64,000 nt of DNA from a virus (IMGVR_UViG_3300027749_000047:32001-96000); one strand, 5' to 3'. Positions 13,222 through 34,604 are shown, counted from the stretch's first letter. Program-made: numbers and translations. Notes: generated from the sequence alone by a model not told the origin.

Positions 13222-15450
13222 ATGAGTAAAAAACCTGCTGGTCGTCCTTATCCTAATCTTGTGGATAACATGGCTGTTAGTAAGGCGCTTTTTAATAAAG
13301 GAAAAATTGCAAGTGCAGTTAAAAATAGATATGCTCGTCCTCTTGCTGATAATGAGTTTTATCATGGTACTAACTTAAAATCTGCTACAAAGATTAAAAC
13401 TCAAGGTTTTAAAACAGTTGACCCTAGAAAAAAAAATTATGAGCCTAGTAGTCACTTAAGATCCGCTGGGAGAAGTTCCACTGGATTTGGTCGCCCAATA
13501 CCTGAAGGAAACATGGGTCCTGGCGCTTATATGACAAAAAACAAATCTCACGCTAAAAAATATGCAAAAGGTAAGTCTGGATTGCCAGCTGTTGTTCGAT
13601 TGCAAGTACCTGAAAACACTAAATTTGTAGAAGTAGATCTTCATGATAAAAATCTAATTGCTTATGTTAACCATGGCAGAAAATCAAATGCTACACATAG
13701 TATTAATGGCCGAATTGCTAATTATGTTAAAAGAAATCATAATACTCATGGTATTTATGATGGTGATTATTATTATGGTCAAACTAAGCACGTAAAAATG
13801 GTTTCTGGCTTAAAACCTGTAAATATTGCTACCGATACTACTGCAGTCGGCGGTGCTGGCTATTACGGCAACAAAAAACTAAACAGTAAGCCTGTTAGTA
13901 AGTCTTGGGAAGAAGTATCTAAAGTATTTCCTCAACGGGCTATCCTCACGCAAGGTACGCGTAAGACACGAGTTATGGTGCATTATGAATATTCACCTAC
14001 ACATTGGGGAATTATTCATCCTACTGAAGGGCAGCGTGTAGCACACAAAGATAGTATTAGGTTTATTCCAAATAAAAAGCCTAAGAGTCCTGGTCCTGAT
14101 TTGTTTGGCGAACCTTTGAAAAAGTCGATGGAGTATAGTGTAGTTATGAATCAGTCCCGTTTTGGAAATGCTAGCAACGTAGCAAAATCACTAGATGATT
14201 ATTGGAAAAAAGAGCAGGCCGAGAAAGAGGCTGCTCATCGTTTGCAAATTAAAGAAACACATGCAATTAGCCGCAATGCTTTTAAACAAGGCGTTAAAGG
14301 CGGTTTGATTATTGGTGTACCTACTGCTGCGGGCGCTACTTATGGCACTATGAAAGCTAAAAAGAAACTTTCTGAAGTACGTAAAGCATCTCTGGGCGCT
14401 GGAAAAATCTTTGAAGGTGCTGCTAACGCTGCGCATCACGCAACTCCTGTTGGTCATGGTTCTGGTGATTTTAGTGCTGAGATGCGTCGCAGTATTCGTG
14501 AGCATGCTGAGCGCACGAGGGCAGCAGCTAATAAGCGTGGTAAGGAACTTGTTTTACGTCCTAAGCCAGGTGAACTTGTTGATACTCGCCCACCTGCGCC
14601 TAAGCCTGCTAAAAAAGGTAGAGAACTTGTTCGTTTGAAACAGGACGTTCCTACTGCTAGTGTCTCTGCGCCTCGCCCAATTAAAATTACTCGCCCGATT
14701 AAAATTACTCGTGGACCTGCTGCTGGCGCAGGAACAAGAGCGCCTTCTGTAGCACCTGCTGTAGCACCTGCTGCGGCGGCACCTAAAGGTGCTCCTGGCT
14801 TAGCGCATTTTGATGAAGGTGTTAAAACTAAGAGTTATGTTCCACATGCTTTGGCTGCTTCTGCTGCGGGTATTACTGGTGGCGTGGCTATTACTGATCC
14901 TGAGAAGCGTAAGAATTGGATTAATGGCGCTAAAAGCCAAATTCATGAGTTGACTAAGGCTGATGAGTACGATGCTGCAGGTAATTTAAAGCAGCCTGCA
15001 AAAATTTCTGGCAACACTGCTATGGGTCTTGCTGGCGCGGGTACGGTTGCTTTGGGTGCGCGTACTCTTGGGCGTGCAGGTAATCTTCCTTATACTGCAG
15101 CACGTAATGCTAATTTTGCTAACAATAATTTGATGCAACAACGTACTTTGCATGCTGATAAAGTAGCTAATACTCAGGCTGCCCAAGCTAAAGCTGCTAA
15201 GGCGCGTATGCCTTGGACTAAGGCTATGGCTAATAAAAATGTTGACCGAGCTGTGTATCATGAATCTCGTCAAGACCAGCGTCTTATTGCTCAAGAAGCT
15301 AAGACCGCTGAAGCGCATGCTTTGGCACATGCTGTTAAGCCTCGTATGAAGATGATGCGTAATGGTGGCATGGGTATGGTTGCTGGCGGTTCTTTGTTGG
15401 CTGCTGGTGCTTTGGTTAATGCTGGTAAAAAGCGTGAGGTTCCACAGTAA
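13222..15450 (+). CDS. Putative internal head polyprotein with N-terminal ADP-ribosyltransferase-like domain
   Basis: FYHGT..IKTQGF..GPGAYM..AKKYA; repeated hydrophobic-x-K(A/S) motifs; four Gly/Ala hydrophobic segments. Confidence 0.65.
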   Translation: MSKKPAGRPYPNLVDNMAVSKALFNKGKIASAVKNRYARPLADNEFYHGTNLKSATKIKTQGFKTVDPRKKNYEPSSHLRSAGRSSTGFGRPIPEGNMGPGAYMTKNKSHAKKYAKGKSGLPAVVRLQVPENTKFVEVDLHDKNLIAYVNHGRKSNATHSINGRIANYVKRNHNTHGIYDGDYYYGQTKHVKMVSGLKPVNIATDTTAVGGAGYYGNKKLNSKPVSKSWEEVSKVFPQRAILTQGTRKTRVMVHYEYSPTHWGIIHPTEGQRVAHKDSIRFIPNKKPKSPGPDLFGEPLKKSMEYSVVMNQSRFGNASNVAKSLDDYWKKEQAEKEAAHRLQIKETHAISRNAFKQGVKGGLIIGVPTAAGATYGTMKAKKKLSEVRKASLGAGKIFEGAANAAHHATPVGHGSGDFSAEMRRSIREHAERTRAAANKRGKELVLRPKPGELVDTRPPAPKPAKKGRELVRLKQDVPTASVSAPRPIKITRPIKITRGPAAGAGTRAPSVAPAVAPAAAAPKGAPGLAHFDEGVKTKSYVPHALAASAAGITGGVAITDPEKRKNWINGAKSQIHELTKADEYDAAGNLKQPAKISGNTAMGLAGAGTVALGARTLGRAGNLPYTAARNANFANNNLMQQRTLHADKVANTQAAQAKAAKARMPWTKAMANKNVDRAVYHESRQDQRLIAQEAKTAEAHALAHAVKPRMKMMRNGGMGMVAGGSLLAAGALVNAGKKREVPQ

Positions 15451-16103
15451 TGACTATTTCTCAGTCTCGTTATGGCAGTAATGCTGAAGTTGGTCGTGCG
15501 CCTAATCGTAAGCCTGTTAAGGATCAGCATCATTGGGGTGCTGCGGCTGGTTTAGGTGTGGCTGGCACTGGTCTTGGTGCTACTCGCGCTTCTAGTGTTT
15601 TGAGCAATAATGCTGGCGCTTCTAAAGGTAAGGCTAATCAATCTTTTGCCGGTGCTCGTATTAGTCGCGGTGATGCTAATCTTCAGCGTCAACTTCAGGC
15701 CAATGAGCAGGCTAAATTAACTAAATTGCGTGGCCGTACTAAAGGTCAGGCTATGTGGATTACTGATGGTCAGGGTAAGCGCATTAACATTCCTGCTGGT
15801 GCTTCTAATGGTGATATTAAAAACATCATGACGGGTGTTTCTCGTGATAGCGCTAGATATTCGCAAAGGGCTGGTATGCACGATAAAGCTGCGCAGGCTT
15901 CGCGCGACGAGGCTCGTAAGCATACAGAAAATTATGTTCGTATGAATCGTTATAGTAAGTTAGCGAGTCGTGGTGGCAAGGTGGCTATTGGTGCTGGTTT
16001 GTTGGGCGCGGCGGGCGCACTTGCTAATACTGAGCATGCTCGTGGTACAGTTGGCTACAAGCGACCTACACGCGCACAATTAAGGGGACGTAATGTCAGA
16101 TGA
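15450..16103 (+). CDS. Basic Gly/Ala-rich protein with two hydrophobic segments (putative virion protein)
   Basis: TAATG coupling; segments WGAAAGLGVAGTGLG and VAIGAGLLGAAGALA. Confidence 0.65.
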   Translation: MTISQSRYGSNAEVGRAPNRKPVKDQHHWGAAAGLGVAGTGLGATRASSVLSNNAGASKGKANQSFAGARISRGDANLQRQLQANEQAKLTKLRGRTKGQAMWITDGQGKRINIPAGASNGDIKNIMTGVSRDSARYSQRAGMHDKAAQASRDEARKHTENYVRMNRYSKLASRGGKVAIGAGLLGAAGALANTEHARGTVGYKRPTRAQLRGRNVR

Positions 16104-17661
16104 TGTACGTTTGGCGGCTAGACAGACTGATGGGTTAAATGCGACACCTGCTGATATTCAGGCAATAGAGGAATTAAAAAATGCTTCTCCTTTTATGGAG
16201 CTTGGTACTACAGGTTTAAAGCGTGCCGGTGGTTACATTGATGAGCAGTTTCTTCCGCAGTTGCGTGGGCGTAAGGCTGTTCAAGTCTTTAAGGAAATGG
16301 CTGAGAATGACCCTTTAGTGGGTTCTTTGTGGTTCACTATTGATCGTCTTATTCGTAATGTTGAGTGGCGTGTTGAGCCTGCTAGTAAGTCTAAAGAAGA
16401 TACAGATAATGCCAAACTTGTAGAAACTTGTATGGATGACATGTCTCATACTTGGGATGACTTTATTTCTGAAGTTTTGTCTTGTGTCATTTATGGCTGG
16501 TCTTGGCATGAGATTGTTTATAAGCGTCGTATTGGTCCTTGGGAAAAAGATTCTTCTAAGCGTTCTAAGTACACTGATGGTCTTATTGGTTGGCGTAAGA
16601 TGCCTATTCGTGCGCAGGAAACTTTGTTGCGTTGGGCGTTTGATGATACGGGCGATGTGTCTGCAATGATTCAGTTGGCTCCGCCTCGTTATGAAACTAA
16701 AGTTTTACCTATTGAGCGTTCTTTGTTGTTTCGTTATCGTCATCAAAAAGGTAATCCTGAGGGTATGTCGATGCTTCGTCAGGCTTATCGTCCTTGGTAC
16801 ATGAAGAAGCGCCTTGAAGAGTATGAGGCTGTTGGTATTGAGCGTGACCTTGCTGGTTTACCTGTTGTTAAGGTTCCGGCAGAGTTTTTGCGTGCTAAGC
16901 CAGGTTCACAGCAAGCCCAAACTGTTGAAGCGTTTAAGCGCATGGTTAAGAGTGTGCGTCGCGATGAGCAAGAAGGCATTGTCTTTCCTATGGCTTACGA
17001 TCAAGATACTAAGCAACCTTTGTATTCTTTTGAACTCATGGGTGGCGGTGGTGCTCGTGCTTTTAATACTGATGCGATTATTCAGCGTTATGAGCAGCGT
17101 ATTCTTATGTCTGTGCTTGCTGACTTTATTATGGTCGGCCATGAGGGTAGCGGTTCTTACAGTTTGCATACCGATAAGACAGGTATCTTCCGTACATCTT
17201 TGAACTCTATTGCGGGTTCTATTGCGGATACGCTCAATCGGTATGCAATCCCTCGTTTGTTTTCTGTTAATGGTATGAAGCCTTCAGAGTTGCCTAAGAT
17301 TGTTCCTGGTGATGTTGATAGTCCAGATATTTCACAGTTGGCTCAGTTTATGTCTGCTATGTCTAGTACTGGTGTTACTTGGTTCCCAGATCCAACTATG
17401 GAAAACTTTATTCGCGATGCTGCGCGTTTGCCTAAACTTAATGATGAAGATGAAGAGCGTCGTCGTCAGATGCAGATGCGTACGGAAGCTACTCAGTATG
17501 CTCAGGCTAATATTGCGTATGTTCAGGCTAAGCAACAGTTGGCTCAAACTCTTATGGGTCAGATGCAGCAACCTGGTCAGCCGGGTCAACCTGCGCAACA
17601 AGATAGTCAACAAAATGCTGCGCAACAAGATAGTCAACAAAATCCTCAACAGGGGCAGTAA
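16093..17661 (+). CDS. Portal protein (DUF935/Mu gp29-like)
   Basis: 522 aa downstream of TerL; YGWSWHEIVY, GNPEGMSMLRQAY and ERDLAGLP; Gln-rich tail. Confidence 0.85.
   Translation: MSDDVRLAARQTDGLNATPADIQAIEELKNASPFMELGTTGLKRAGGYIDEQFLPQLRGRKAVQVFKEMAENDPLVGSLWFTIDRLIRNVEWRVEPASKSKEDTDNAKLVETCMDDMSHTWDDFISEVLSCVIYGWSWHEIVYKRRIGPWEKDSSKRSKYTDGLIGWRKMPIRAQETLLRWAFDDTGDVSAMIQLAPPRYETKVLPIERSLLFRYRHQKGNPEGMSMLRQAYRPWYMKKRLEEYEAVGIERDLAGLPVVKVPAEFLRAKPGSQQAQTVEAFKRMVKSVRRDEQEGIVFPMAYDQDTKQPLYSFELMGGGGARAFNTDAIIQRYEQRILMSVLADFIMVGHEGSGSYSLHTDKTGIFRTSLNSIAGSIADTLNRYAIPRLFSVNGMKPSELPKIVPGDVDSPDISQLAQFMSAMSSTGVTWFPDPTMENFIRDAARLPKLNDEDEERRRQMQMRTEATQYAQANIAYVQAKQQLAQTLMGQMQQPGQPGQPAQQDSQQNAAQQDSQQNPQQGQ
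17591..17644 (+). repeat. 27-bp tandem repeat in the portal Gln-rich tail
   Basis: CTGCGCAACAAGATAGTCAACAAAAT occurs twice. Confidence 0.85.
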
Positions 17662-17918
17662 TGAATTTAACACTTGAACGTAGGGCGCAAATAACTGTTG
17701 CTGGTGCTTGTGCTCACATTGCTCAGGAAAACAATGCTGATGCTGCCAAATTGGTTAATATGTTTGTTACTGATGTTATGGAAGAAAATGGCATTAAGTT
17801 TGATGAGGCTTTGGAGATGCTTGCGCGTGCGGGTATTGCTATTTCTATGATGGCTGCTGAGCCTGATGTTGAGGAAACTTTTCGCCGTATTACTTTGACG
17901 TTGAGTGAGTTGCAGTGA
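17661..17918 (+). CDS. Hypothetical protein
   Basis: Translationally coupled ORF after the portal. Confidence 0.65.
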   Translation: MNLTLERRAQITVAGACAHIAQENNADAAKLVNMFVTDVMEENGIKFDEALEMLARAGIAISMMAAEPDVEETFRRITLTLSELQ

Positions 17919-19096
17919 ATAAGAAAAACAAAAATAGGCTTCATGGTGTTGAAGCTGCTGCAGTTGGTGGCAGTGTTGCTGGTGTTGGCGCAAACATTAA
18001 TTATCGTTCTGAAAAGGCTTTGCGTGCTTCTGGCAAAAAGGGTTTGTGGGATGCTACTAAAGCGCGTGAATTGGGTGTGGAGCATGCCAAGTTTGTTGGC
18101 TCTAAGTTAGGCGCTCGAGGTTTGCAGGTTACGGGTATTCCTTTGGCACTTGTTGGTGCTAAGCATGCTGTTACTGGCGAGCCTACTCGCCGTTTAGATA
18201 TTCATCATGATGTTGTTAAACCTGTGGCGCATAATGCTGTTATGGCTGATCAGTTAAAGCGTGGTGAAAAGAATTTAAGTAAAGCTGATGTTCCCGATTA
18301 TGAGGATAAGATTCTTAGTTCTAAGCGTCGCGCTAAAAACTTTTCTCGCGTTGCTGGCACTTTAGGTTTGGCTGCTCTTGGTACACGTGCGCCTGAGATT
18401 GCTAATTATGCCGCTAAGAAGGCACCTAAACTTGCTACTAATAAACATGTTGCAGGTATTATTGCTCATGAGCCTAAAGCAACTAAAGCTTCTAATACTT
18501 TAGGTATTGGTGCTATTGGCGTTGGCGCACTTGGTTCTTTTAATAATGCTAAGTTACAAAATCTTGAGTTTAAGCAAGGTAAGCAACGTAAGGCTGGTAT
18601 TGCTAAACGTGATGATAAGTTTTTAGCACAGCATCGTAATCGTATTAGTCCTGAGGCTGAAGAGGGATATAAATATCTACGCAATGGTGTCAAGCATCGT
18701 ACTTTTGATGCCGCCGCTGCAGGCGCCTTAGGTACTGGCGTTATTGCCTATTCTGCTAGAGATTTGCGTCATAAAAATAAGGCTGGCGCTGCTTTGGGTA
18801 CGTTGGCTGGTGCTATTACACTTAAAGAAGCGCATGATAATTATAAGGCTGCTAGGTCTTGGAATGCTAAGGCTAATAAGATTAAGGCTAAAGCTTATGA
18901 GCGTGAGGCTGCTGGTGAGTGGGGCAAGAATCGTCAAGTTACTGTTGCTAAGTCTTTGTGGGATGTTGATAAAGCATCTTTAGGTATGGTGCCTAATGTT
19001 CCTAAAGGTTTGATGCGTCGTCCGGCTATTAGGCAAGGGCATTTGATGAGAACGCGTAGTGGTAAGGTTGTTTCTGTTAATGGGTCGATTGGTTAA
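17915..19096 (+). CDS. Putative internal head polyprotein (basic, Gly/Ala hydrophobic segments)
   Basis: LSKAD, IAKRD, VAKSL and VDKAS motifs separate modules that each carry two hydrophobic helices. Confidence 0.65.
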   Translation: MNKKNKNRLHGVEAAAVGGSVAGVGANINYRSEKALRASGKKGLWDATKARELGVEHAKFVGSKLGARGLQVTGIPLALVGAKHAVTGEPTRRLDIHHDVVKPVAHNAVMADQLKRGEKNLSKADVPDYEDKILSSKRRAKNFSRVAGTLGLAALGTRAPEIANYAAKKAPKLATNKHVAGIIAHEPKATKASNTLGIGAIGVGALGSFNNAKLQNLEFKQGKQRKAGIAKRDDKFLAQHRNRISPEAEEGYKYLRNGVKHRTFDAAAAGALGTGVIAYSARDLRHKNKAGAALGTLAGAITLKEAHDNYKAARSWNAKANKIKAKAYEREAAGEWGKNRQVTVAKSLWDVDKASLGMVPNVPKGLMRRPAIRQGHLMRTRSGKVVSVNGSIG

Positions 19097-19107
19097 GGGG
19101 TTTTGTT

Positions 19108-22100
19108 GTGTCATTGCTTGATGCGGTTCGTAAGGCTGTAGAGGAAGACCCTGAAGGTGGTTCTATTCTCATTGATGAGATTGTTTATTCTTTTTTGGCT
19201 GATGAGGCTGAGCAGATTCGTCCTGAAGTTCAGGAAATGTTATCTGAGTTTATGGCTGACCGTGTTGCTGTCGCTAAACGTGCGTTAGGTCGTGCTTATG
19301 TTGAAACTATGGCTAATGGTGAATACCCTGACCCTGAAGTTCAGAAGAATGCTGAGTGGATTGCTGGCATCGAGCGTTTTGTTGCTTCAGATATTTCTAA
19401 GGCTGATGATCGTCCTTTTGATGAGCGGTTGCATCCTCGTGGTAGCGGTGGTCGTTTTAGCACTAAAGCGCCTCATGCGGCTGAGGTAGCGGCTGGTGCT
19501 TATGTTGGTTATGCTGGCGCACAGCATCCTAAAAAGCATAGTGCTACTACTAAAACTCATGTAATGCCCGATGGTAGTGGTAAAAATGTTTATTCTGAGG
19601 GTATTGATGTAGATACTAAGAAACTTGTTGACCAGCATCAGTATCAATGGGATGCAGCTAATCAGCAGGCTAGTGATATTTTAAATAGTTTTGGTGGCGA
19701 TGCTAAAAATGTTAATCTACATATCACTGTTCAGAATAAACATAATGACAAAATGCGCGACATTATTGTCCCAGGTAGTGATGCTAAAGGTGGTTTGCCT
19801 GAAGATGCTGCTTGGTCATTAAATGATGATTACAAGTCTATGAGTGTTGAATCAGCAAAGTTAGATAGTCCTGATAAGCAAATTATGATTGATAGGCGCG
19901 TGGATGCCTACAATGTTATGGGTAATGCTGGTGGTCCTGCTATGGCAGAGTTAGGCGCTGTCGACCCTGCACGCTATTCTCAGTTACGCACTTCTATGGG
20001 CCGTAATTACATGCGCGATAACAAAAAGTCTAAAATGACTACGTTTTTTGACCGATTGCATGCTGGTGGTGGAGTTCTTCGAGAAGTCCCAGGTATGGAA
20101 AAGTATGGTCGTTTTGCACAGTTTGTTGGCGTTAATGGCCCAGAGGCTGAAGAAGCGCTTGGTCCTTATGCTAAACAAGCTGCGTATCGTTACCGCGGCA
20201 CTGAGAAAGAGCCAGATTTAGAAATAGTTACACAGTTCAATAGCACTACTATGAATGCTGTTAATGCTGTGGCTGTTAATCCTAATAATAAGTTGGCTAT
20301 GGATCATCTTGAAAATGAAATTTCTGGTCAGGGTGAGAAGGATGTAGTTGCTACTTCTGCTGTTTATGAAATGAATCACTTAAAGCGCACTCGTGGTGGT
20401 GAATACACTCCGGATGAATTAGCGCTTAATGTTCGTGCTGATGTGGCTACACGTCATTTGTTAAACACTTTACCAACTGACCCTTTTGTAGCTGATTTGT
20501 CACGCGCTGCAGGTAATGTTTTGCCTTCGCAAGGAATTATTATTGATGCTGATGGCGATGTTGTTTCGCAGTCTGTTGGTTTTGCGGATGACCACTATTT
20601 GCCGTTTGATCTTAAGAATCTTAAGTCTTTGCGTGGCGGTCAGTATGTTCGTACGCGCCAGCAAGGCGGTTTGACTGCTGAGGATGTTTACGCGTCTATT
20701 CGTACGGGTGCGCGTATGGCTACGGTTGTTTCATCTTCTGGTGTGTTTTCTTTAGAGTTTGACCCTAACTTCCGTGGTGCTCGCGCCAATTCTGATAAGG
20801 CTCGTCAGATGGTTGATCGTTATGTCAGCATTCTTGATGCAGTTCAAAATTCTAATCTTTACACTCAAGACATTGACCAGAAAGAAAAAGAGCGCTTAAA
20901 GGGTTTGGCTAACTCAATGGGTGCTACTGATGCAGAACGTAAGGATTTGTTTAATCATTATGTTGATCAAGCACGTAACGCTGGTGAGAATCTTAATGAA
21001 CAAGATTTACAGTTAATTCAAGAAGATGCTGTTAAACAGGTTGATAATGAAGGCTTTAAGTACAAGAATGAGCGTTACAATCGCCGTGTTAATGAAGTGT
21101 TTGATGAAATGGCTGAGCAAAAGCGTGCGCAACGCGTTTCGCGTCTAAATCTTAATTCAAAGGGTTATGATGCTGCGTTGCAGACTTTGCAGCAACAGTT
21201 CCCGTATTTTATTCGTTCTGTTAAGTATCAGCCTTTGACTGCTGATAAGAATGGCCAGCGCGGCTTTTTACAGTCTCTTGGTCAGTCTGGTGCTGCAGGT
21301 GCTCGTCAAAAGTTGTCTGCTAAAGACCAGGGTTATGTTAATGCTGGTGCTGGTGACCTTCGACCTAATGTTGGTTACCCAAAGCCTGCTGAAGAAAAGA
21401 TTGGTGCTGGCGCTACTAGCGAAACTAAACCAACTACTGGTGGTACTGAATCTAGTACTGCAGAGGCACCTAAGCCTAAGTCTGTTCCTAAGGCTAAATT
21501 CTTGGGTGATTTGGAAGTATTTACTGCTAGTGCCAATAAAGAAGCGGCGTCTGAAGTTGAAGAATTAGCATCTATTTTCCGTAGTCATGACCCAGGAATT
21601 CAAGGTGTTCCAGGTACTACTGAGTGGTCTGTAGCAAAAGGCGCTTTTGAAACTACTGGCGATAAACGTTTGGCTGCTAAGTATTTATTAGCTGCTTCAA
21701 ACAATGGCGAGCATGATGCTTTGGCTAAGGCTTACAAGTCAGACCCTGCTATTGTTGGTGCTGTTTTGTCAGATGAAAAAGCAGTTAAAGAAGCTCTTTC
21801 TGCTCTGTATGGTTCTGCTTGGCAAGGCGAGGCAGAAATTAGTTTTGGAATGTCACTTAAAGATTTGCAGGGAAATGTTCATTATGTGGCCGATAAAATT
21901 AACGAGGCTTTGGAATTAAAAACACCCTATGCCCCTGCATCTCATGGCCCTGCTGGTTTATTTTACACAGGCAATAAGCCTCAAGAAATGGCTGAGTTGG
22001 CTGCAGTTAACGATAAAGCAGGTCTCAAGAGCATGATTAATGCTAGCCCTGCTGTTGCCGAAATTGCTTCAGATCTTGATGGTTTAGATAATGCACAAAT

Positions 22101-23378: not shown

Positions 23379-23390
23379 AAGTAGGGGATT

Positions 23391-25886: not shown

Positions 25887-25921
25887 GATAAGATTGACCG
25901 TAATAAGAATTTGGAGAATCA

Positions 25922-26635
25922 ATGGATTCGTTAGAGATTGTTAAGTCGCTTCATAAGGTTGACCCAGGCTTTGTTGACTTGTGTAAAACACTATTTGGCG
26001 ATGCTATTTACCCTGAGGTTATTTGGGAATATTTGTATACCCCTGAGGGTATTTCTAAGATGGGTCCTGATCCGTCAGAGTTGAATACTTCTTCTAGCAA
26101 TAAGCGTGGTCGTTTGGTTCCACAAGAGCGTAATCCTCAGGTTCCTCGAGTTAAGGTACTGGCTAAGCATTCTCATAAAGGCGAACAAGTCGATAATACT
26201 GATGCTATGAGTAAGTCTGATGATGATTTTGACATTACTTGGTCTGGTGAGTTTGCTAAAGCTGATGAGGATAAGCGTCAGGTTTTTGGCTGGGCTTCTA
26301 TTGTTGAGGTTGATGGCACTCCGGTTGTTGATCGTCAGGGTGATTGGATTACTCCTGAAGAGATTGAAAAGGCTGCTTATCAGTATGTTTTGAATTCTCG
26401 TAAAGCTGGGCATCAGCATAAGCGTGATGGTGATCAGCCTTTTCATGCAGGTGACATGATTGAGTCTTTTGTTATGACTCCTGAAAAGGTTGAAAAGATG
26501 GGTCTTCCTGACGATACGCCTATTGGCTGGTGGGTTGGTTACAAGATTCATGATGAGGATGCTTGGCAGAAGGTTAAGAAAGGCGAAGTTACTGGCTTTT
26601 CTATTCATGGTCGCGGTAAGCGCAAAGAAGTCTAG
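25922..26635 (+). CDS. Prohead maturation protease, XkdF-like
   Basis: KRQVFGWAS..DRQGDWI..IEKAAYQY..HQH..IESF..GWWVGYK..WQKVKKGEVTGFSIHG. Confidence 0.85.
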   Translation: MDSLEIVKSLHKVDPGFVDLCKTLFGDAIYPEVIWEYLYTPEGISKMGPDPSELNTSSSNKRGRLVPQERNPQVPRVKVLAKHSHKGEQVDNTDAMSKSDDDFDITWSGEFAKADEDKRQVFGWASIVEVDGTPVVDRQGDWITPEEIEKAAYQYVLNSRKAGHQHKRDGDQPFHAGDMIESFVMTPEKVEKMGLPDDTPIGWWVGYKIHDEDAWQKVKKGEVTGFSIHGRGKRKEV

Positions 26636-26637
26636 TT

Positions 26638-26937
26638 ATGTCAATTAGCAAAGCACTTGTTGAAGGTAATATTTCTAAGGGCTCTAATGTTCGAGAGTTT
26701 CCTTATCTTCCTGAAAACATTAGGGAATGGCAAAATAGCGCTGCTCCTATTCGCCGTAATCCTGTTTCACCTTTGTCTATGATTGCGGCTAGTAATGTGA
26801 TGGCTTTGGGTAATAATTTGGGTAACCAGTCTGGTATGTCTAAGCGCCAGTTGCGTCGTCTTGCTCGCGGTTTGAATCTTTATGAAGGTGGTCGCGCTAA
26901 TGTGTATTCGCCTATTGGTCAGGGGACGATGGTTTAA
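26638..26937 (+). CDS. Small head-region protein
   Basis: Begins MSISKALVEGNISKGS, with two cleavage-like motifs. Confidence 0.6.
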   Translation: MSISKALVEGNISKGSNVREFPYLPENIREWQNSAAPIRRNPVSPLSMIAASNVMALGNNLGNQSGMSKRQLRRLARGLNLYEGGRANVYSPIGQGTMV

Positions 26938-28733
26938 TGGCTACTGATCAACCTAAGGGTCATGCTCAAGAGTTGGGTGTAGGTCTTGTAGGAGCTACTG
27001 CTGCTGAAGCTGCTGCGGTTTCTGAGTCTGCTAAAAAGTATCGCAATTTGAAGGCTAAAGGTTTTCATGTTGCGCCTGAGGAAATGGGCGCTATCGCGCG
27101 TAGAATTGGTCCTAAGAATGCAGCTATTGCGGGTCTTGGTTTACAAGGCACAAATATGGTTGTGGGTGCGAGTGCTGCGCATCATTTGTTGAAGAAACCT
27201 AAAGGAAGTGCTATGAAATCTGGTCAGACTGCTATTCATAAGGCAGAGGGTGCTGTAAGCCGTAATGGTCATGGTAAAAAAATGGACAGTAAGTTGCCTG
27301 CTGCTATGGCTACATCTGGCGGGGTTTATGGCGCTGCTATGGGTGGTTATTTTGGGCATGCTTTTGGTGATCGCGGTTTAGAAAATGCTTATGAAGCATA
27401 CGGACTTCGCGAAGCACGCGCAGAAAAACCTAAACGCGATGGCGTAAAAGGTTTAACTAAAACTAGTCGTGAGTATAAAAAAATGATGCGTGCAAATGGT
27501 TTAATGGCTCAGCCAAAGTCTTTAGCGCAACATGGTAAAGATGCTAAACATTTTGCTGGTAAAAATAAATGGGCTATTGCTGGGGCAACAGGTCTTGGTA
27601 CCGTGTCTGCTTTAGGCTCTTATGCTGAGGGTAAAAAAGCGGTTAATAAAGCTGACCGTGGTAAGGCTTTGGACGCTACTGGTGCGGTTGCCGCTGGTGT
27701 TGGCGGTGCAGGTTTGTATCAAGCTGGAAAAATGAATACTAAGGCTAAGCGTGCTACTGCGTCTGCTGAAAAATATGGCGAAAGATTTCTTGATTACAAA
27801 AATCAAGAATCAAAAAAATTAAGGGATGCAGCAAAACAATACAATAAATCGGTGGCTAATGGTGTAATTAAACCTAGCATACACCACACTGCTGCTGGCT
27901 CTGTTGGATTTGTTCATGACCCAGAAACTTTAAGACACATGGGTTGGGCACAATCTCACGCCGAGCAAGCAAGCCGTGAGTATGACAAGTCTAAAAAAAT
28001 GGAGGGTATTGCTCAGAAACTTAAGTCAGGGCGTAACAAGTACGCTCTTGGTGGCGCTGCTTTAATTGGAGCTGCTGGAGCTGAACGCGTTTACAACAAC
28101 AAAAAAGTTAATAAAGCTGTTGGCGCTAATTCTTTAGTTATGATTCAAAATCGTAAAAATAAAAAGAAGTTAGAAGCTGCGGGAACTCCAGTTGAAAAAT
28201 CCAAAGCTGCTGAAAGAAGAGAACATAAAACTAATGCTGCTATAGCAGGTGTAGGTGGATCTGCTCTTTTATATAACGCTGCTAATAAAACTTCTGCTAG
28301 CAAAACTGCATCGTCTTTGGGCTCAGATTATTATGCAAAAAAAATTGCTCGTGGGCGTAATTTAGGTGTTGCAGCTGGCAGTGGTTTTTTGGCAATTGCT
28401 GCTAATGAGGCTAATAAAGCACATAAATTAAAAACTCCAGTTAAAAAAGCTTATCGTCGTTTTGATCCTGAGGCTGACCGTCAACGTCGTCTAGGTCTTT
28501 ATTCGGGCGCCGCTGCGGGTTCTGGTATTGTGTTGGGCCGTGAAGCTGCACGTAATTATAAAGTTAGTGGTTTGGATTCTGCTAGTCGTGCAGAACATGG
28601 TTTGGGTGTCAAACTTAAGCCTGGTCTGACTAAGCGCGGGTTAGGCCTTACTGCTGCCACATTGGCTGCTGGTGCTATTAGTGCTGGTTCGTACAAGCGT
28701 GGGGTTAGTGCTCGTAATCAGCCTTGGACATAA
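26937..28733 (+). CDS. Putative internal head polyprotein (about 10 Gly/Ala hydrophobic segments)
   Basis: IHKAE, VNKAD, VNKAV, VEKSK and VKKAY delimit cationic two-helix modules. Confidence 0.65.
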   Translation: MATDQPKGHAQELGVGLVGATAAEAAAVSESAKKYRNLKAKGFHVAPEEMGAIARRIGPKNAAIAGLGLQGTNMVVGASAAHHLLKKPKGSAMKSGQTAIHKAEGAVSRNGHGKKMDSKLPAAMATSGGVYGAAMGGYFGHAFGDRGLENAYEAYGLREARAEKPKRDGVKGLTKTSREYKKMMRANGLMAQPKSLAQHGKDAKHFAGKNKWAIAGATGLGTVSALGSYAEGKKAVNKADRGKALDATGAVAAGVGGAGLYQAGKMNTKAKRATASAEKYGERFLDYKNQESKKLRDAAKQYNKSVANGVIKPSIHHTAAGSVGFVHDPETLRHMGWAQSHAEQASREYDKSKKMEGIAQKLKSGRNKYALGGAALIGAAGAERVYNNKKVNKAVGANSLVMIQNRKNKKKLEAAGTPVEKSKAAERREHKTNAAIAGVGGSALLYNAANKTSASKTASSLGSDYYAKKIARGRNLGVAAGSGFLAIAANEANKAHKLKTPVKKAYRRFDPEADRQRRLGLYSGAAAGSGIVLGREAARNYKVSGLDSASRAEHGLGVKLKPGLTKRGLGLTAATLAAGAISAGSYKRGVSARNQPWT

Positions 28734-28786
28734 AAATGCTTAAGTCTAATGCGAGCAGTCAAAAACTGTAAGAAGATTGGAATACT

Positions 28787-29788
28787 ATGAATCAAAATGT
28801 GAAGCGTCTTTTTGACATTGAGATAGATGAAGTCTCTGTCGTTGACCGCCCTGCTAATCAGCATGGTCTTATTGCGTTTGCTAAAAACGATGACAGCGTT
28901 GATGAAACTCCTGCTTTGTTTGATGAAACTGGCGAAGAAGTACCTGCCGAAATTCTTGAGCATGGTGATGTTGTTTTTGATGCTGAAGGCAACGAGTATG
29001 TTTACGTCGAGGATGAAGTTGACTCTGATGACGATGTTGAAAAAGGTATGTTCACCGGATTTGCAGAAAAATTTGCTGCATCTAAGGCTGGACAAAAGGT
29101 ACTTCCACACCTTGTAAACGGTGCGGAAAAAGCTGGCACTAGTTACCGTGGTGCTATGACTTCTGAAGCTGGTCAGTCTCTTGCTCGTGGCACGAAAAGG
29201 ACGACTGGTTGGATGAAAGAAAATCCGGGCAAAAGTCTTGCCTTAGCTGCTACCGGCGGTGGCGCTGCTGGATACGCCTTATCAAAGGCAGAAATGAGTG
29301 ATCATATGAGTCTAGGTGACTCGGTTCTTGAAGAACTAAGTAAGGCGGTCACCGAGCGTGATCGCGAAGAAATCATTGCTAAAGCAATGGATGAAGTTGA
29401 AATCGCAAAGGCTCAAGCTGCTGAAGCATACGAATATGCTGCTGCAATCGAAGATGCCCGTATCGAAGATGCTTTCATCTCTAAAGCAGCGGAATACAAT
29501 CTTCCTGTTGCACCAGAAGTATTCGGCCCTATTTTGAAGTCAATTGCTGAGGCTTTGACTGATGAAGAGCTAGAACTTGTTGATGAACTTTTCTCCGCTA
29601 TCGGTGATGCGTTGTACAACGAAATCGGCTATGTTGGAGATACAGACAATGTTTCTGTTCTTGACACAGTTAATGGTCTTGCTAGTGAATTTGTTGGTAA
29701 GGCTGATGTGTCTTACGAGCAGGCGTTTACTGCAATGTTTGAATCAAACCCAAGCGCATATGACGCTTACTTAGCAGAAGGACGATAA
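28787..29788 (+). CDS. Capsid scaffolding protein
   Basis: IDEVSVVDRPAN N-terminus, acidic coiled coil, many xxKA sites, upstream of the capsid genes. Confidence 0.75.
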   Translation: MNQNVKRLFDIEIDEVSVVDRPANQHGLIAFAKNDDSVDETPALFDETGEEVPAEILEHGDVVFDAEGNEYVYVEDEVDSDDDVEKGMFTGFAEKFAASKAGQKVLPHLVNGAEKAGTSYRGAMTSEAGQSLARGTKRTTGWMKENPGKSLALAATGGGAAGYALSKAEMSDHMSLGDSVLEELSKAVTERDREEIIAKAMDEVEIAKAQAAEAYEYAAAIEDARIEDAFISKAAEYNLPVAPEVFGPILKSIAEALTDEELELVDELFSAIGDALYNEIGYVGDTDNVSVLDTVNGLASEFVGKADVSYEQAFTAMFESNPSAYDAYLAEGR

Positions 29789-29791
29789 GTC

Positions 29792-30442
29792 ATGGCTTAC
29801 GAAGAGTCCCTTAAATCCATTTCCCTCGCGGCTGATGCTTCGATTGCTGGTTACACCGGTGTATCTAACGTTGGTCTTGGTGGATTCCCATCTAGCAAGT
29901 CTTTGACTGCTACTATTTCTTACGCATCGTCAGTGAACACTTTCACCACTCCGACACCTCATGGTTTTTCTTTTGGTGACACGATTGTTGTTACTGGTGC
30001 TACTGCTGCAGCAAATAATGGCACTTTCACTATTACAGGTATTGCTTCGGCAACTACTTTTACTGTTGCTAACGCTGCCCCTGGTGTTACGCAGTCTGGT
30101 GCAGGTATCACTGTAACTCGTAACATCAGCACTGCTGGCTTCCAGTACCGCTTTGTTAAGATTACTGGTTCTAAGACTGCTGGTCTTTGTACTGCTTCAT
30201 CTGATTACAGCATTGGTGTTCTTCAGAACAAGCCACAGGTTACTGGCGCTGCTGCTCAGGTTGGCTTCATCGGTGTCTCGTTTGTTGTTTCAGGCGATGC
30301 TTCAATCACTGCAGGTACAAAAGTAACTGCAGATTCACTCGGTCGTGCAACAACATACTCTAGTGGTGTGGTTGGCGGTGTAGCTCTTGCTGCTTCTTCA
30401 ACTGTTGGCGAACTTATCCCCGTGCTTCTGGCCGCACGATAG
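29792..30442 (+). CDS. Capsid cement/decoration protein (DUF2190-like) with inserted beta domain
   Basis: C-terminal IGVLQNKP..ITAGTKVTADSLGRA..GVALAAS..GELIPVLL; insert HGFSFGDTIVVTGA..NGTFTI. Confidence 0.7.
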   Translation: MAYEESLKSISLAADASIAGYTGVSNVGLGGFPSSKSLTATISYASSVNTFTTPTPHGFSFGDTIVVTGATAAANNGTFTITGIASATTFTVANAAPGVTQSGAGITVTRNISTAGFQYRFVKITGSKTAGLCTASSDYSIGVLQNKPQVTGAAAQVGFIGVSFVVSGDASITAGTKVTADSLGRATTYSSGVVGGVALAASSTVGELIPVLLAAR

Positions 30443-30459
30443 AAATAGGAGACTAACTC

Positions 30460-31467
30460 ATGCCAAGTCCATCCCAGTCCGATCTGCATGTAAATGTGCC
30501 GTTGACCAATGTGTCGATTGCCTACATGCAGTCTGCAGATGCATACATTGCTGACAAGGTATTTCCTAAAGTACCGGTCAAAAAGCAATCAGACCTTTAT
30601 TGGAAGTACAGCAAGAGCGATTGGCGTCGTACTGACGTTGCTCGCCGTGCGCCTTCTACAGAGTCTCCAGGCGTTGGTTGGAACACAACCACCGACCAGT
30701 ACTTTGCTCACGTCTACGCCGTGCACAAGGACATTGACGATCAGTTACGCGCCAATGCTGATAGCAACTTCGTACTAGACCGTGACAGCACCGAATTCAT
30801 CACAAACCAACTTTTGTTGAAGCGTGACGTTGACTGGGCTGCTAAGTACTTCACCACTGGTATTTGGGACAATGACCTTACTGTTGGTGCTTCTGCTAAC
30901 GCTAATGGTTTCACTGCTCCTGCCGCTAAGTGGTCAGATGCTGGCTCAGACCCAATTGGCGACGTTGCTCGTGCGGTTATTTCTTTCCGCAAGAACACCG
31001 GTTTTGCTCCAAACATCATGGTTCTTGGTGCCGATGTTATGACTGCCCTAAAGCAGCATCCAGATATCATTGACCGTATCAAGTACACTCAGCGCGGTAT
31101 CGTGACTGAAGACTTGATTGCTACAATGTTTGGCGTTAACGAACTGTACACATCGTACGCTTCACAGTCAACTGGTCCACAGATTCCAGATGCTAAGACT
31201 CAGGATGCTGCTGCTTCATACAGCTTCATCAATGATTCTAAGTCTGCTCTGTTGTGCTACGCGCCTTCAGCACCTAGCTTGATGACTCCATCAGCTGGTT
31301 ACACCTTCACTTGGAATGGCTACCTTGGTGGTAATTCTGAAGGTATCAAGATCAAGCGTTTCCGTATGGAACACATTGCATCAGATCGTATCGAAGCAGA
31401 AATGACTTACGATATGAAGACTGTTGCTACTGACCTTGGTGCATTCTTCACAAGCGTGGTTGCATAA
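30460..31467 (+). CDS. Major capsid protein
   Basis: LTNVSIAY..IADKVFPKVPVKKQSDLY, lambda gpE-like family; highly expressed codon style. Confidence 0.9.
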   Translation: MPSPSQSDLHVNVPLTNVSIAYMQSADAYIADKVFPKVPVKKQSDLYWKYSKSDWRRTDVARRAPSTESPGVGWNTTTDQYFAHVYAVHKDIDDQLRANADSNFVLDRDSTEFITNQLLLKRDVDWAAKYFTTGIWDNDLTVGASANANGFTAPAAKWSDAGSDPIGDVARAVISFRKNTGFAPNIMVLGADVMTALKQHPDIIDRIKYTQRGIVTEDLIATMFGVNELYTSYASQSTGPQIPDAKTQDAAASYSFINDSKSALLCYAPSAPSLMTPSAGYTFTWNGYLGGNSEGIKIKRFRMEHIASDRIEAEMTYDMKTVATDLGAFFTSVVA

Positions 31468-31469
31468 TC

Positions 31470-32099: not shown

Positions 32100-32104
32100 G
32101 AATT

Positions 32105-32404
32105 ATGACTGTGGCTAAAGCTGCTAATGGCAAAGTGCAGACGTCGATTAAGAAAGCCACTTCTACTACTTCTCGTGCTAGTTCTATATCTCAGCAGGAT
32201 GTTTCAGTGGCTAATAAAGAGGTTCAGCGGGTTGCTACTCGTAATGCAATCGTAGCTGATACTACTAAGGCTATTGTGTATAAGGCTGTCAAGACTATGG
32301 TTGTTGGCGCTAATACTTATGCTCCGGGTGATGTTGTGCCTGAGGCTAATAGTTGGTTGCGTCTTGAGTCGTGGATTGCGGCTCGTTGGATTCAGGAGTC
32401 ATAA
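32105..32404 (+). CDS. Small head-associated protein
   Basis: VAKAA, IKKAT and VYKAV motifs; operon position. Confidence 0.6.
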   Translation: MTVAKAANGKVQTSIKKATSTTSRASSISQQDVSVANKEVQRVATRNAIVADTTKAIVYKAVKTMVVGANTYAPGDVVPEANSWLRLESWIAARWIQES

Positions 32405-32449
32405 TGTGTGCTGGGTCTAAAGTTGAAGATAAAATTTCTAGAGTAAAGC

Positions 32450-33055
32450 GTGGTTATTAAAATGGAAAAATCGTTTATGGTTGCTAAGGCTTACCGTGAT
32501 TTGGAAGAGTTTGCTAAGTCTTTTGATTTGGCTCCTACGCACGTAGGTAGTATTTCTGCTGGTCAACGTTATTGCGATAATGGTTCTTGTGCTACTTGCA
32601 TTAAGCAGAAGAGTCGTGACGATAATGATAAGCAGACTGCTTTGCATATTCGTAAAGATGATGATGTTGAAAAAGGTTTGCCATCTGTGGCTCGCCAAGC
32701 TATTCGTGAAGGCAAGGGCGCTAATGCATTCAGGCAAAATGGTCCCATGCAGTTCAGAATGGGTGCTAATAATGCTGGCAAGCGTGCATCAGCAGGGCTT
32801 AGCGCTGGCGGAGAGCGTAGTCACCTTAATACGATTATTGATTCTGGAAGAAACACAAAAGACCATTACCGTCTTTTGTCTGGCGAAAAAAACGTAGCAA
32901 ATCGTGGCAAAATTGGCTTACAGCGCTCTACTATTAATCCTGGCACCACGGTTAGGGAAAGCCAAGCGTCTCTTTCTGAAAAGCGAGAAGCTCTTTTAAG
33001 ATCTCGACGTCCAGTTCAAATCCGTGGCGGCGAAGCAAACAAGCCCGCCTGGTAA
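32450..33055 (+). CDS. Putative internal head protein
   Basis: MEKSF, VAKAY, FAKSF and DDVEKGL motifs, followed by a basic domain. Confidence 0.6.
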   Translation: MVIKMEKSFMVAKAYRDLEEFAKSFDLAPTHVGSISAGQRYCDNGSCATCIKQKSRDDNDKQTALHIRKDDDVEKGLPSVARQAIREGKGANAFRQNGPMQFRMGANNAGKRASAGLSAGGERSHLNTIIDSGRNTKDHYRLLSGEKNVANRGKIGLQRSTINPGTTVRESQASLSEKREALLRSRRPVQIRGGEANKPAW

Positions 33056-33075
33056 AACTAAGTTAGGAATTTATT

Positions 33076-33732
33076 ATGAGTAATGAGCAAGATTATTTAG
33101 TACGCAAGGCTCAGCGCGGTTTTAATGATATTGCTGATGCTGTGCTTGACGATGTTTACGAAGATGACTTAGTTGTTGACGAATATGGTAACGTTTATGC
33201 TCTGGTTGAATTAGAGGGCGTAGAAAAGGATGCTAATACTGCAACTGCTATGGGTGCAATACCTATTGCAAGTACTGTTGCTGGTCCTGGTTACAATGCT
33301 TCTCAGGCGCGTAAGGGACGTAAGGCCGCTGTTGCTGGTCGTACTTATGGCTCGCAAGCAGTGTACGGAGGTCTTGCAGGTACGGCTGGCGCAGCGGGTG
33401 TTCTTGCCCATGCTTCGCGCAAGGCAGGTGGTCTTGAACATATTGGACCTAGTTTAAGTCCTAAAGCAAAGCTGGCTGTTGGTGGCGCTGCCTTAGCTGG
33501 TACTGGTTTTGGCGCCCGTCGTGCTCATATAAATGCTAAAAAGCGTGGAGACATTGTTGAAAAAAGTATGAGTTCTGAAGGTGTTCGTAGTGCTTACTAT
33601 GGCGCTAAAGATGCTATGCGTGAAGCTAAGTATAAGGCTGGCGATTCTATGCGTGAGGCTAAATACAAGGCTGGGGATTCTTTACGCGAAACTCGTCTTA
33701 AAACTGGCGATAAACTTCGTAGGTCAAAATAA
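33076..33732 (+). CDS. Putative internal head protein with 11-residue C-terminal repeats
   Basis: VRKAQ, VEKDA and VEKSM; Gly/Ala helices; MREAKYKAGDS repeats. Confidence 0.6.
   Translation: MSNEQDYLVRKAQRGFNDIADAVLDDVYEDDLVVDEYGNVYALVELEGVEKDANTATAMGAIPIASTVAGPGYNASQARKGRKAAVAGRTYGSQAVYGGLAGTAGAAGVLAHASRKAGGLEHIGPSLSPKAKLAVGGAALAGTGFGARRAHINAKKRGDIVEKSMSSEGVRSAYYGAKDAMREAKYKAGDSMREAKYKAGDSLRETRLKTGDKLRRSK
33613..33712 (+). repeat. 33-bp tandem repeat (about 3 copies)
   Basis: CTATGCGTGAAGCTAAGTATAAGGCTGGCGATT and degenerate copies. Confidence 0.75.
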
Positions 33733-33762
33733 TTTTTTAGCAATTTAGGTTAGGATTGTCCT

Positions 33763-34263
33763 ATGTCATGGACGTATAGCGGTAATCCGGGTTCTTCAGA
33801 TAAGGACAGTGTTCGCTTTTATGTGGGTGATACTGATTCTTCTTTTCCGTTGTTAACGGATGAGGAAGTACAGTTTCTTTTAGATCAGTGGGAGTTAGAT
33901 TACAATGCGCCTCTTTATGTGGCTGCTGTGGCTGCCGAGGTCATTTCTGGTCGTTTTGCTCGTGAGGTAAGTGTTTCTGCTGATGGTGTTTCTGTTCAGT
34001 TAAGCGAGTTGCAGGAGCGTTATAACAATCTTGCTTCGTCTTTGCGTGACCAGTACAAGGCGTTGTATGGTTGGTTTGACCCTGCTACTGCTAATAATAT
34101 TCTTAGCATTGATTGGGATCCTGAGATTAAGCCTCTTGTGTTTGGTATTGGCTTTAATGATAATTATTTGGCTGGTCGCCAAAATTATGGAGATTTCCAT
34201 CCTGGTCGTTCGACTGACTGGTGGAAGTCTGATGTTCAAAACGAACCGATTGTTTGGGGTTAA
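33763..34263 (+). CDS. Head-to-tail adaptor
   Basis: SVRFYVGDTD..LLTDEEVQFLL..AAEVISGRFAREV. Confidence 0.75.
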   Translation: MSWTYSGNPGSSDKDSVRFYVGDTDSSFPLLTDEEVQFLLDQWELDYNAPLYVAAVAAEVISGRFAREVSVSADGVSVQLSELQERYNNLASSLRDQYKALYGWFDPATANNILSIDWDPEIKPLVFGIGFNDNYLAGRQNYGDFHPGRSTDWWKSDVQNEPIVWG

Positions 34264-34265
34264 TT

Positions 34266-34604
34266 ATGGAAAAAGATTATTTGATTAGTAAAGCTCAGCG
34301 AGAGATTGAAAAAGGTTGGCGTGATCCTAAAGTTAGAGGTCAGGCTGTTTGGGTTGATGTACATGAAGGTAATGAAAAAAAGACGTTAGCGCCTACTAAA
34401 ACTGAAATTCACCCAAAAGGTAAAAGTCTTATTTTGCGACGTAATAAATATTTTTTGACTTCTTTGCCTGAATTAAAGAAAAAACAAAATTTAATTGGCC
34501 TTCATGATGCTAAAAACTTTAAACTTGATAGTACTGGCGCTAAATTTGTTGAAAATGAATATAAGTCTGGTAAAAGGTATACAAAAACTCGAATTGGCGG
34601 CTAG
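34266..34604 (+). CDS. Putative internal head protein
   Basis: Begins MEKDYLISKAQREIEKGW, followed by a Lys-rich domain. Confidence 0.55.
   Translation: MEKDYLISKAQREIEKGWRDPKVRGQAVWVDVHEGNEKKTLAPTKTEIHPKGKSLILRRNKYFLTSLPELKKKQNLIGLHDAKNFKLDSTGAKFVENEYKSGKRYTKTRIGG

Follow-up and report, generated by a model that had tools for sequence, protein, structure and literature searches.

Recognition codes of prohead proteases are, to our knowledge, known experimentally only for T4, for the phiKZ group and, as single sites, for HK97-type phages. The prohead protease gp21 of T4 has the code (L/I)-x-E↓ (arrows mark bonds that are cut, or predicted to be cut), which concerns gp21 itself, the scaffold gp22 and, with their N-terminal leaders for targeting to the capsid, the internal proteins IPI-III and Alt; in HK97, gp5 is cut at K103↓S104, and the capsid proteins of SPO1, A511 and K-type phages are cut at K↓S. 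We consider here 64,000 nucleotides of DNA from an uncultured freshwater phage of c. 67 kb (the whole of this stretch, positions 32001-96000 of the contig IMGVR_UViG_3300027749_000047, is called the window), in the head proteins of which a short lysine motif, [V/I]-x-K↓[A/S], recurs. From its distribution across these proteins and their relatives, we put at roughly three in four the probability that this motif (with some L or M at P3 and some G, N or Q at P1', residues also used by individual conserved sites) is the cleavage code of the phage's own XkdF-type prohead protease.

The likeness to T4 lies in a code of three positions (P3 aliphatic, P2 free, P1 charged), assigned to a single head protease and common to the scaffold, the protease and other head proteins, and in short N-terminal leaders that end in a site. 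The differences are that P1 is Lys and not Glu, that the protease belongs to PF14550 and not to the T4 family, that the phage is a siphovirus of c. 67 kb, that the cargo genes lie between the terminase and capsid genes, and that the system is known here from sequence alone. Among giant phages, gp175 of phiKZ and gp245 of SPN3US mature many head proteins (PMC10052503, PMC7411985), and in SPN3US site-rich propeptides are cut several times (PMC10052503). The processing of many head proteins, the shredding of long N-terminal propeptides with multiple motifs and self-processing by the protease are all predicted for the present phage, but phiKZ and SPN3US are jumbo myoviruses of at least 240 kb with a Glu-type motif and mass-spectrometric proof, whereas here the genome is of c. 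67 kb, the motif is of Lys type and the evidence is computational. Since both the PF14550 family and the Lys at P1 set it apart, the system would work like those of T4 and phiKZ without being a member of either group.

With HK97-type phages the comparison is of an assemblin-fold serine protease, a basic P1 and a small P1', all of them predicted here. In Staphylococcus aureus phage phi12, which has an HK97-type protease, the capsid protein is cut after R128 and the Ccm protein after K87 (PMC8569155), an experimental precedent for a basic P1 in this type of protease. The known substrate in those phages is, however, essentially the delta domain of the capsid protein, whereas the capsid protein of the window has neither delta domain nor site, and the predicted substrates are a separate scaffold and about a dozen extra proteins. 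A last comparison is with polyvalent proteins, the large multi-module proteins encoded among phage head genes (Iyer, Burroughs, Anand, de Souza, Aravind 2017, PMC5512222), and with Dar/DdrB of phage P1: there, as here, multi-module products of head genes are predicted to be packaged, processed and delivered, and modules are shuffled between relatives. The present proteins differ in that no MuF domain, zincin-like metallopeptidase or other defining domain was detected in them (for MuF, PF04233, and metallopeptidases there was no match at E <= 0.01), and in that processing is assigned to a separate prohead protease acting through a defined linker code.

The lysine motif in head proteins and their relatives

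An initial annotation of this DNA described a head-wide motif consisting of a hydrophobic residue, any residue, lysine and A, S or G, and every instance that it listed is present in the gene concerned. When the 20 head proteins of the window were compared with the 56 others, this loose motif, [VILMF]-x-K-[ASG], was indeed enriched beyond composition in the head (58 observed against 32.8 expected, 1.77x), and the excess persisted after shuffling inside 20-residue windows (1.79x), which for the loose motif rules out local Ala/Lys-rich linker composition as its source. In the rest of the window, however, the loose motif also stood at 1.34x (59 against 44.1 expected), so that much of its signal is background. 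Scanning of P3 in the head proteins gave 27 V against 9.7 expected, 14 I against 5.7 and 10 L against 9.9, and of P1' 35 A against 14.3, 14 S against 7.9 and nine G against 10.2. The motif was narrowed to [VI]-x-K-[AS] because L, M or F at P3 and G at P1' were not head-specific as classes; the loose form was rejected as a head code, [LMF]xK[AS] being at 1.34x in the head but at 1.8-1.9x in tail and non-structural proteins.

The contrast between head and other proteins is clear with the refined motif, which occurs 33 times in head proteins against 10.8 expected (3.05x, z score 7.1) and is at chance elsewhere (tail, 5 against 5.5; non-structural, 10 against 9.3), while controls in which K was swapped for R or E ([VI]x[R/E][AS]) gave ratios of c. 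1.0. As a guard against post hoc tuning, 394 class motifs were scanned with no prior choice: [VI]xK[AS] ranked first in the head (z 6.9, the second having z 3.8), while in the remainder of this genome copy it came 439th of 1053 (z 0.17). The Lys codons at the sites are mixed (17 AAA, 16 AAG), so the signal is at the level of protein, and a DNA-level motif was ruled out on this ground. The clustering near N-termini is likewise borne out, with a loose site within the first 25 residues in 10/20 head proteins against 8/56 others (Fisher p = 0.004). The impression that the motif is rarer in portal, capsid and tail proteins holds for its refined form (no strict site in the portal, no site at all in the major capsid protein) but not for the loose one, since the presumed tape-measure protein has 15 loose matches, three of them strict. 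A flanking logo from P11 to P9' gave mild acidic preferences after the site and nothing decisive, and per-column identity around the sites was uninformative, as A/S and V/I swaps score as mismatches.

These counts bear directly on the explanation that the motif has no function and merely reflects composition or secondary structure, through a bias of amphipathic helices or Ala/Lys-rich linkers. The excess of the loose motif outside the head, and that of L-x-K-[AS] in tail and non-structural proteins (1.8-1.9x), are what such a bias might produce; yet it is contradicted by the survival of the loose-motif excess after local shuffling, the flat R and E controls, a first rank that is confined to the head, the free variation of P2 between invariant neighbours, and the depletion of the motif (see below) in regions where composition predicts 21-62 copies, and we consider it the least credible of the explanations discussed here. 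The reading as a protease code is further favoured by relatives of the phage.

The source contig, of 135,953 bp, contains two related but non-identical phage genomes of c. 67 kb in tandem, head to tail (repeat period c. 67,227 bp), whose orthologous proteins are 45-98% identical; the terminase genes, at contig positions 43082 and 110309, have 94% identity. In all likelihood two variants that occur together were fused into a chimera during assembly, rather than forming a real 136-kb genome, which leaves the phage with a genome of modest size, as the initial annotation had supposed. The second genome copy and seven metagenomic contigs of 13-67 kb provide eight related head modules with a shared gene order, in each of which [VI]xK[AS] is enriched 2.3-3.3x (pooled tail proteins, 0.40x). 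The enrichment extends to those parts of the relatives, 15,750 residues in all, that align with no protein of the window (42 against 18.8 expected, z 5.4), and this is independent support. A profile of the 1158-residue protein discussed in the next section retrieved 79 further loci, with 858 non-redundant proteins, in which the motif was distributed by protein class as follows:

Scaffold: 193 observed against 12.1 expected, 15.9x
Protease: 121 against 26.4, 4.6x
Cargo families: 2.0-4.0x
Portal: 1.34x
Capsid: 1.27x
Terminase: 0.44x
216-residue protein family (35 proteins): 1 against 6.3, 0.16x
AAA+ ATPase: 0 against 3.2, ratio 0

This order of the classes is that expected if a prohead protease cuts at the motif. 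As a control of the method, the same scan was applied to gp21, gp22, gp67 and gp68 of T4: it returned [LIV]xE as the top motif (38 against 18.9 expected), and no lysine code.

Proteins encoded next to XkdF-type proteases in cultured phages are also rich in phi-x-K-[AS]. The protease-scaffold protein of Bacillus phage B83 has 13 such sites against 1.6 expected, the scaffold of Roseobacter phage RDJL6 nine against 1.4, and ORF085 of Pseudomonas phage KPP23, a presumed scaffold beside a presumed protease gene, has 10. From this saturation of scaffolds, the code looks like a trait of the protease family. Might the sites nevertheless be cut by a lysine-directed protease of the host? Maturation by a host enzyme has a precedent in staphylococcal phage 80alpha (PMC8569155), and the link between the phage enzyme and the bond is here an indirect one. 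Against this, scaffolds adjacent to XkdF-type proteases are saturated in phages of hosts as unlike as Bacillus and Roseobacter and in the freshwater clade, as is the presumed scaffold of Pseudomonas phage KPP23; T4, with its Glu-specific protease, is without a lysine code; and in the phage protease there is a site where the linker ends; cutting by the host thus seems very improbable, and we return to the phage's own protease as the preferred agent.

The 1158-residue protein, the protease and the scaffold

The family of the 1158-residue head protein numbers more than 330 in the database, none of which is annotated; members have been found in freshwater phage contigs of c. 67 kb. Its layout is:

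19108..22584, + strand: the whole protein
Residues 1-95: helical pro-domain
Residues 96-99 (19393..19404, + strand): ISK↓A, where a disordered linker begins, shortly ahead of the HPR motif
Residues 109-117: HPRGSGGRF
Residues 120-753: body
Residues 754-793: linker ending in VPK↓A 793
Residues 797-1102: helical domain
Residues 1104-1131: linker with LAK↓S 1118
Residues 1118-1121 (22459..22470, + strand): this LAK↓S, in the C-terminal disordered linker, a hot spot in 46/114 homologues

Among 114 full-length members of the family, [VI]xK[ASG] occurs 234 times in residues 1-120 against 25.5 expected, and 103 times in the last c. 58 residues against 13.0 (7.9x), but once in residues 121-330 against 32.3, 10 times in residues 331-760 against 54.1, and 20 times in residues 761-1100 against 61.7; a control motif was flat along the family. 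Because its members are related, [VI]xK[AS] was also ranked against all class motifs: in residues 1-120 it tops the 435 classes for enrichment (203 against 18), in the fast-evolving residues 121-330 no other of 518 classes is as depleted (1 against 20.9), and in residues 761-1100 it is 26th from the bottom of 919 classes. Selection of this kind, which favours the motif at both ends and disfavours it in the body, is on these counts what a cleavage signal would predict and is hard to explain otherwise.

An AlphaFold model built from the 114-sequence alignment (mean predicted local distance difference test score, pLDDT, 82.7) has disordered segments at residues 97-111, 298-303, 754-793 and 1104-1131, and ISKA 96-99, VPKA 793-796 and LAKS 1118-1121 lie at or in three of them (p c. 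0.01). Of the 307 strict sites across the family, 45% fall in the 11.9% of residues that align to disordered segments and another 45% in the N-terminal helical domain (8% of residues), leaving 10% for the remaining 80%. The main hot spot of the family is ISK↓A 96-99, with a site within +-7 columns in 70/114 members (consensus VSKA). A strongly conserved core, at c. 331-760, has many invariant residues. Searched against the PDB with Foldseek, the model gave nothing at E <= 0.001, and there was no Pfam or PHROG match either. The initial annotation envisaged polyproteins cut into many pieces; this protein looks instead as if it would undergo removal or shredding of its N-terminal helical pro-domain (c. 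98 residues) and loss of its C-terminal tail, and not dicing.

The avoidance of the motif in protein bodies is also what chiefly counts against a non-proteolytic role, in which the motif would be a docking signal for the capsid interior, the portal, the N-terminal domain of the protease or the AAA+ ATPase. Targeting would equally fit the enrichment in co-assembling proteins, the N-terminal leaders and the conserved placement before modules, and the conserved HPRxxxG[RK]F that lies 6-17 residues downstream of many sites indicates that other short linear motifs operate here. A docking signal gives no account, however, of the purging from bodies (1 against 20.9) or of the 5-13 copies per scaffold; moreover, the pattern of P3, free P2, Lys at P1 and small P1' is typical of protease subsites, and the module has a gene for a dedicated protease in which the predicted catalytic residues are intact. 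We therefore think docking unlikely, and take cleavage by that protease as the better account. The protease and the other core genes of the siphovirus structural module (+ strand, c. 10.6 to 51.7 kb of the window) are:

11082, + strand: large terminase (closest homologues are the large-terminase genes of related contigs)
16093..17661, + strand: Mu-like portal (PF06074, E 5e-34)
22515, + strand: AAA+ ATPase
25922..26635, + strand: XkdF-type prohead serine protease, 237 residues (PF14550)
26207..26218, + strand: MSK↓S, protease residues 96-99, at the end of a disordered linker in the model
28787..29788, + strand: scaffolding protein, 333 residues
29336..29488, + strand: invariant scaffold site cluster, LSK↓A 184, IAK↓A 197, IAK↓A 206 and ISK↓A 231
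29792..30442, + strand: 216-residue protein, between the scaffold and capsid genes
30460..31467, + strand: major capsid protein, 335 residues, without delta domain (phrog_1005, E 5e-87)
31470, + strand: gene with an fn3 domain
37722-43127: presumed tape measure, 1801 residues, assigned from size and position

The order portal, protease, scaffold, capsid (16093, 25922, 28787, 30460) is kept in the 79 loci. The protease matches Pfam PF14550, Peptidase_S78_2 (E 1.4e-23, 83.7 bits, cut-off 24), its residues 110-235 covering positions 4-125 of the 126 in the profile; sequence comparison with solved structures gave no match. Across 42 homologues H166 (98%), S227 (95%) and H229 (95%) are conserved, and these residues are predicted to be catalytic by analogy with H85 and S140 of T4 gp21. 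In a model of the protease (pLDDT 59.5), a helical N-terminus (1-40) is followed by a disordered linker (54-100) and then by the catalytic domain (105-235). The best structural match of this model in VIA-align is T4 gp21 (5jbl_A, Z 7.6, root-mean-square deviation 4.5 over 114 aligned residues), although the model is of low confidence and matches with Z under 8 may be due to chance; after gp21 comes a row at Z 5.0, 2.6 Z lower, and the protease of varicella-zoster virus has Z 4.3. The MSKS at the end of the modelled linker is kept in 18/44 protease homologues, close relatives carrying a similar [MV][ST]K[SAN]D, and MSK↓S 96 is a candidate self-cleavage site, the cutting of which would release the catalytic domain.

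The scaffold is the heaviest carrier of the motif, with eight loose and five strict sites. All 42 homologues have LSKA184, IAKA197 and ISKA231, and 40 of them VGKA303 (flank identity 0.40-0.48). The N-terminus of the scaffold, LFDIEIDEVSVVDRPANQHGLIAFAKN (28787-28900, residues 5-33), weakly resembles the C-terminal strand region of the HK97-type Peptidase_S78 (PF04586 positions 128-156/165, E 0.048), and every relative has kept it; an ancestral fusion of protease and scaffold may have left it behind, or it may serve as a strand for docking onto the protease. The 216-residue protein has no site here, and the near absence of the motif from its family would be in keeping with a part of the prohead that has to withstand the protease. 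No site occurs in the AAA+ ATPase, and no motif at the -1 frame junction leading into it.

Cargo genes, leaders and module joints

From the terminase to the capsid gene the stretch is of c. 18 kb here, compared with c. 7.5 kb in the cultured relative KPP23 (capsid proteins 43% identical), and therefore c. 10 kb is extra. No Pfam or informative PHROG match was found for genes 13222, 15450, 17915, 19108, 23391, 26638, 26937, 29792, 32105, 32450, 33076 and 34254. The cargo and other extra genes, with their sites, are:

13222..15450, + strand: 742-residue polyprotein-like cargo; VSK↓A 19, VSK↓S 225, LKK↓S 299, VAK↓S 320, VRK↓A 386, LTK↓A 577
17915..19096, + strand: 393-residue head-module protein; LSK↓A 121, VAK↓S 344, VDK↓A 351
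23391..25886, + strand: 831-residue head-module protein; IAK↓A 68, and twice I-S-K↓Q/N followed by HPRSVNGQF, sites 179 and 461
26638..26937, + strand: 99-residue protein; 14-residue leader, MSISK↓ALVEGNISK↓G, then a conserved module
26937..28733, + strand: 598-residue polyprotein-like cargo; IHK↓A 100, VNK↓A 236, VNK↓A 391, VEK↓S 419, VKK↓A 502
28440..28451, + strand: VKK↓A, residues 502-505 of the preceding, at the joint of variable cargo and conserved C-terminal module
32105..34604, + strand: the post-capsid genes 32105, 32450, 33076 and 34254, all four small, with the motif at the end of each N-terminal leader

The initial annotation placed the motif at module boundaries, and comparison with homologues upholds this. 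The sites of gene 13222 bracket a weak ART-like module (39-218, which falls between sites 19 and 225) and other swappable blocks, and homology blocks begin exactly at lkks/veks–MEYSVVMNQSR (299) and at ltka/vvka/iyka–DEY (577), the dash marking the block edge. In gene 26937 the conserved C-terminal module, residues 505-598 (YRRFDPEADRQRR ... RNQPWT), is joined to unrelated N-terminal parts in 28 database proteins; directly before it, P1 is K and P1' is A in 28/28, P3 is V in 17 and I in eight (25/28, otherwise M, L or A), and P2 is any of nine residues. The variable N-terminal parts of these homologues have 61 motifs against 19.8 expected, and the C-terminal module none against 2.8. The module of gene 26638, SNVREFPYLPEN..., is directly preceded by [VI]SK[GS] in 7/7 homologues, and in relatives 60-300 unrelated residues stand ahead of it. 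Both C-terminal modules (28449-28733 and 26680-26937) have Gly/Ala-rich hydrophobic stretches and invariant ends (...RNQPWT and ...YSPxGxG[TS]M); they may be anchors or membrane-active pieces.

Individual sites also persist between poorly conserved flanks in gene 17915, where 14/17 aligned homologues retain VAKS344 at a flank identity of 0.29 and 10/16 retain LSKA121, and in gene 23391, where ISKQ179 (flank identity 0.37) and ISKN461 (0.21) each persist in 16/18 homologues. An element [HNQ]PRx(3-4)G[RK][FWY] occurs at 19432-19458 (HPRGSGGRF) and at 23958-23984 and 24819-24845 (HPRSVNGQF in both). In 47/54 cases an aliphatic-x-K-small site lies 6-17 residues upstream of such an element (mode 13), compared with 21% of random positions; the element could be an exosite, or a signal exposed at a new N-terminus. 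The paper on polyvalent proteins (PMC5512222) makes no mention of it.

The leaders of the post-capsid genes are MTVAK↓A, M(E)KSFMVAK↓AYR, MSNEQDYLVRK↓AQR and MEKDYLISK↓AQR, and there are internal sites at VEK↓G 73 (gene 32450) and VEK↓S 161 (gene 33076); a gene lying inside this span, 33763-34263, has no site. The homology block 66-201 of gene 32450 begins at vekg–LPSV in both phages, and the block end ve–ks of gene 33076 aligns with ivk–aYRRF in a relative. Three of the genes (32462-32500, 33076-33120, 34266-34304) have in common the leader M..[DK][YF][LM][VI]xKA[QY]R, which resembles a capsid-targeting leader ending in a cut site and which is internal to a 398-residue protein in one relative.

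The cutting of polyproteins into many pieces would thus fit genes 13222 and 26937, if not the 1158-residue protein. For the mature enzymes that were to result there is little to be said: genes 13222, 17915, 19108, 23391 and 26937 have no Pfam or PHROG domain other than a sub-threshold ART-PolyVal (PF18760) in residues 46-157 of gene 13222 (13357-13692; E 0.012, 16.8 bits, cut-off 31.2), and the AAA+ ATPase is itself free of sites. The ART-like domain, and the presence of an invariant Lys in a fixed neighbourhood, might be taken to mean that the lysine is a site of modification or cross-linking (an ART-like target, or an acyl or isopeptide reaction) and is not scissile. But the clades in which the motif occurs have no conserved modifying enzyme in common, the cargo genes being absent from B83, RDJL6 and KPP23, and placement at module joints and leaders would be unexpected; modification is accordingly a most unlikely substitute for the proteolytic code proposed above.

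A possible course of head maturation and its meaning

In the maturation that we envisage, the scaffold, portal, capsid protein and protease would co-assemble into the prohead together with the extra head-module proteins. The protease would free its own catalytic domain at MSK↓S 96, each cut falling after the lysine of the motif, and would chop the scaffold at c. 5-8 sites into fragments small enough to exit. From other proteins it would trim short leaders (5-20 residues) or the site-rich helical pro-domain of c. 98 residues, and the modules of the polyprotein-like genes 13222 and 26937 would be separated at disordered linkers. Regions that need to survive would have been purged of the motif, and cargo modules would be swapped between related phages as cassettes ending in cut sites. 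It is from the statistics of the motif, its conservation and avoidance, its placement in linkers and at boundaries, the family and fold of the protease, and the recovery of the T4 code by the same scan that we infer cleavage itself, the scissile bond, packaging and injection.

Several points weigh against this reading. Several conserved copies of the motif, among them VRKA7 of the 1158-residue protein and IEKA148 and VKKG218 in the fold of the protease, fall within predicted helices or strands and may be structural. The invariant scaffold sites are in predicted coiled-coil-like sequence, and their conservation alone is no proof of cutting. The protease model has a low pLDDT, and its match to gp21 is within the range of chance fold matches. 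We found no published cleavage specificity for XkdF-type or PF14550 proteases, and a collection of 50,697 phage records contained no homologue of the scaffold, and no cultured phage with the cargo genes either. Lastly, members of a family are phylogenetically related and their counts are not independent, which the ranking of class motifs mitigates but does not remove.

The other explanations nevertheless account for less, chiefly because none of them provides for the depletion of the motif in protein bodies. The idea of the initial annotation that a prohead-protease recognition code is common to the scaffold, the protease and the extra head proteins is, on comparative grounds, strongly supported, because the motif is enriched in unalignable parts of relatives, is depleted in bodies, is placed in predicted linkers, coincides with the ends of homology blocks and saturates scaffolds; what has changed is that the motif is narrower than was first thought.

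Linkers, leaders and the scaffold show selection for the motif, and protein bodies selection against it, and the result is a testable code, readable from sequence and with predicted scissile bonds, for the widespread XkdF-type proteases. It points to a siphovirus of ordinary size with an unusually large set of extra head proteins, which the protease is predicted to mature and whose modules are exchanged at the predicted cut sites. As the code appears to reach the cultured phages B83 of Bacillus, KPP23 of Pseudomonas and RDJL6 of Roseobacter, it can be tested at the bench now, and better annotation of mature virion proteins and of candidate injected proteins would follow. More tentatively, and with the odds perhaps a little against it, aliphatic-x-Lys↓small may conceivably be a general code of PF14550 proteases that serves in this large uncultured freshwater clade in a plug-and-play manner, modules flanked by sites being loaded on a conserved leader or anchor and then released, so that cassettes amounting to c. 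10 kb turn over while the cut sites stay fixed. If so, one could predict from sequence alone, for thousands of phages, the proteome of the mature virion and the cargo that is injected.

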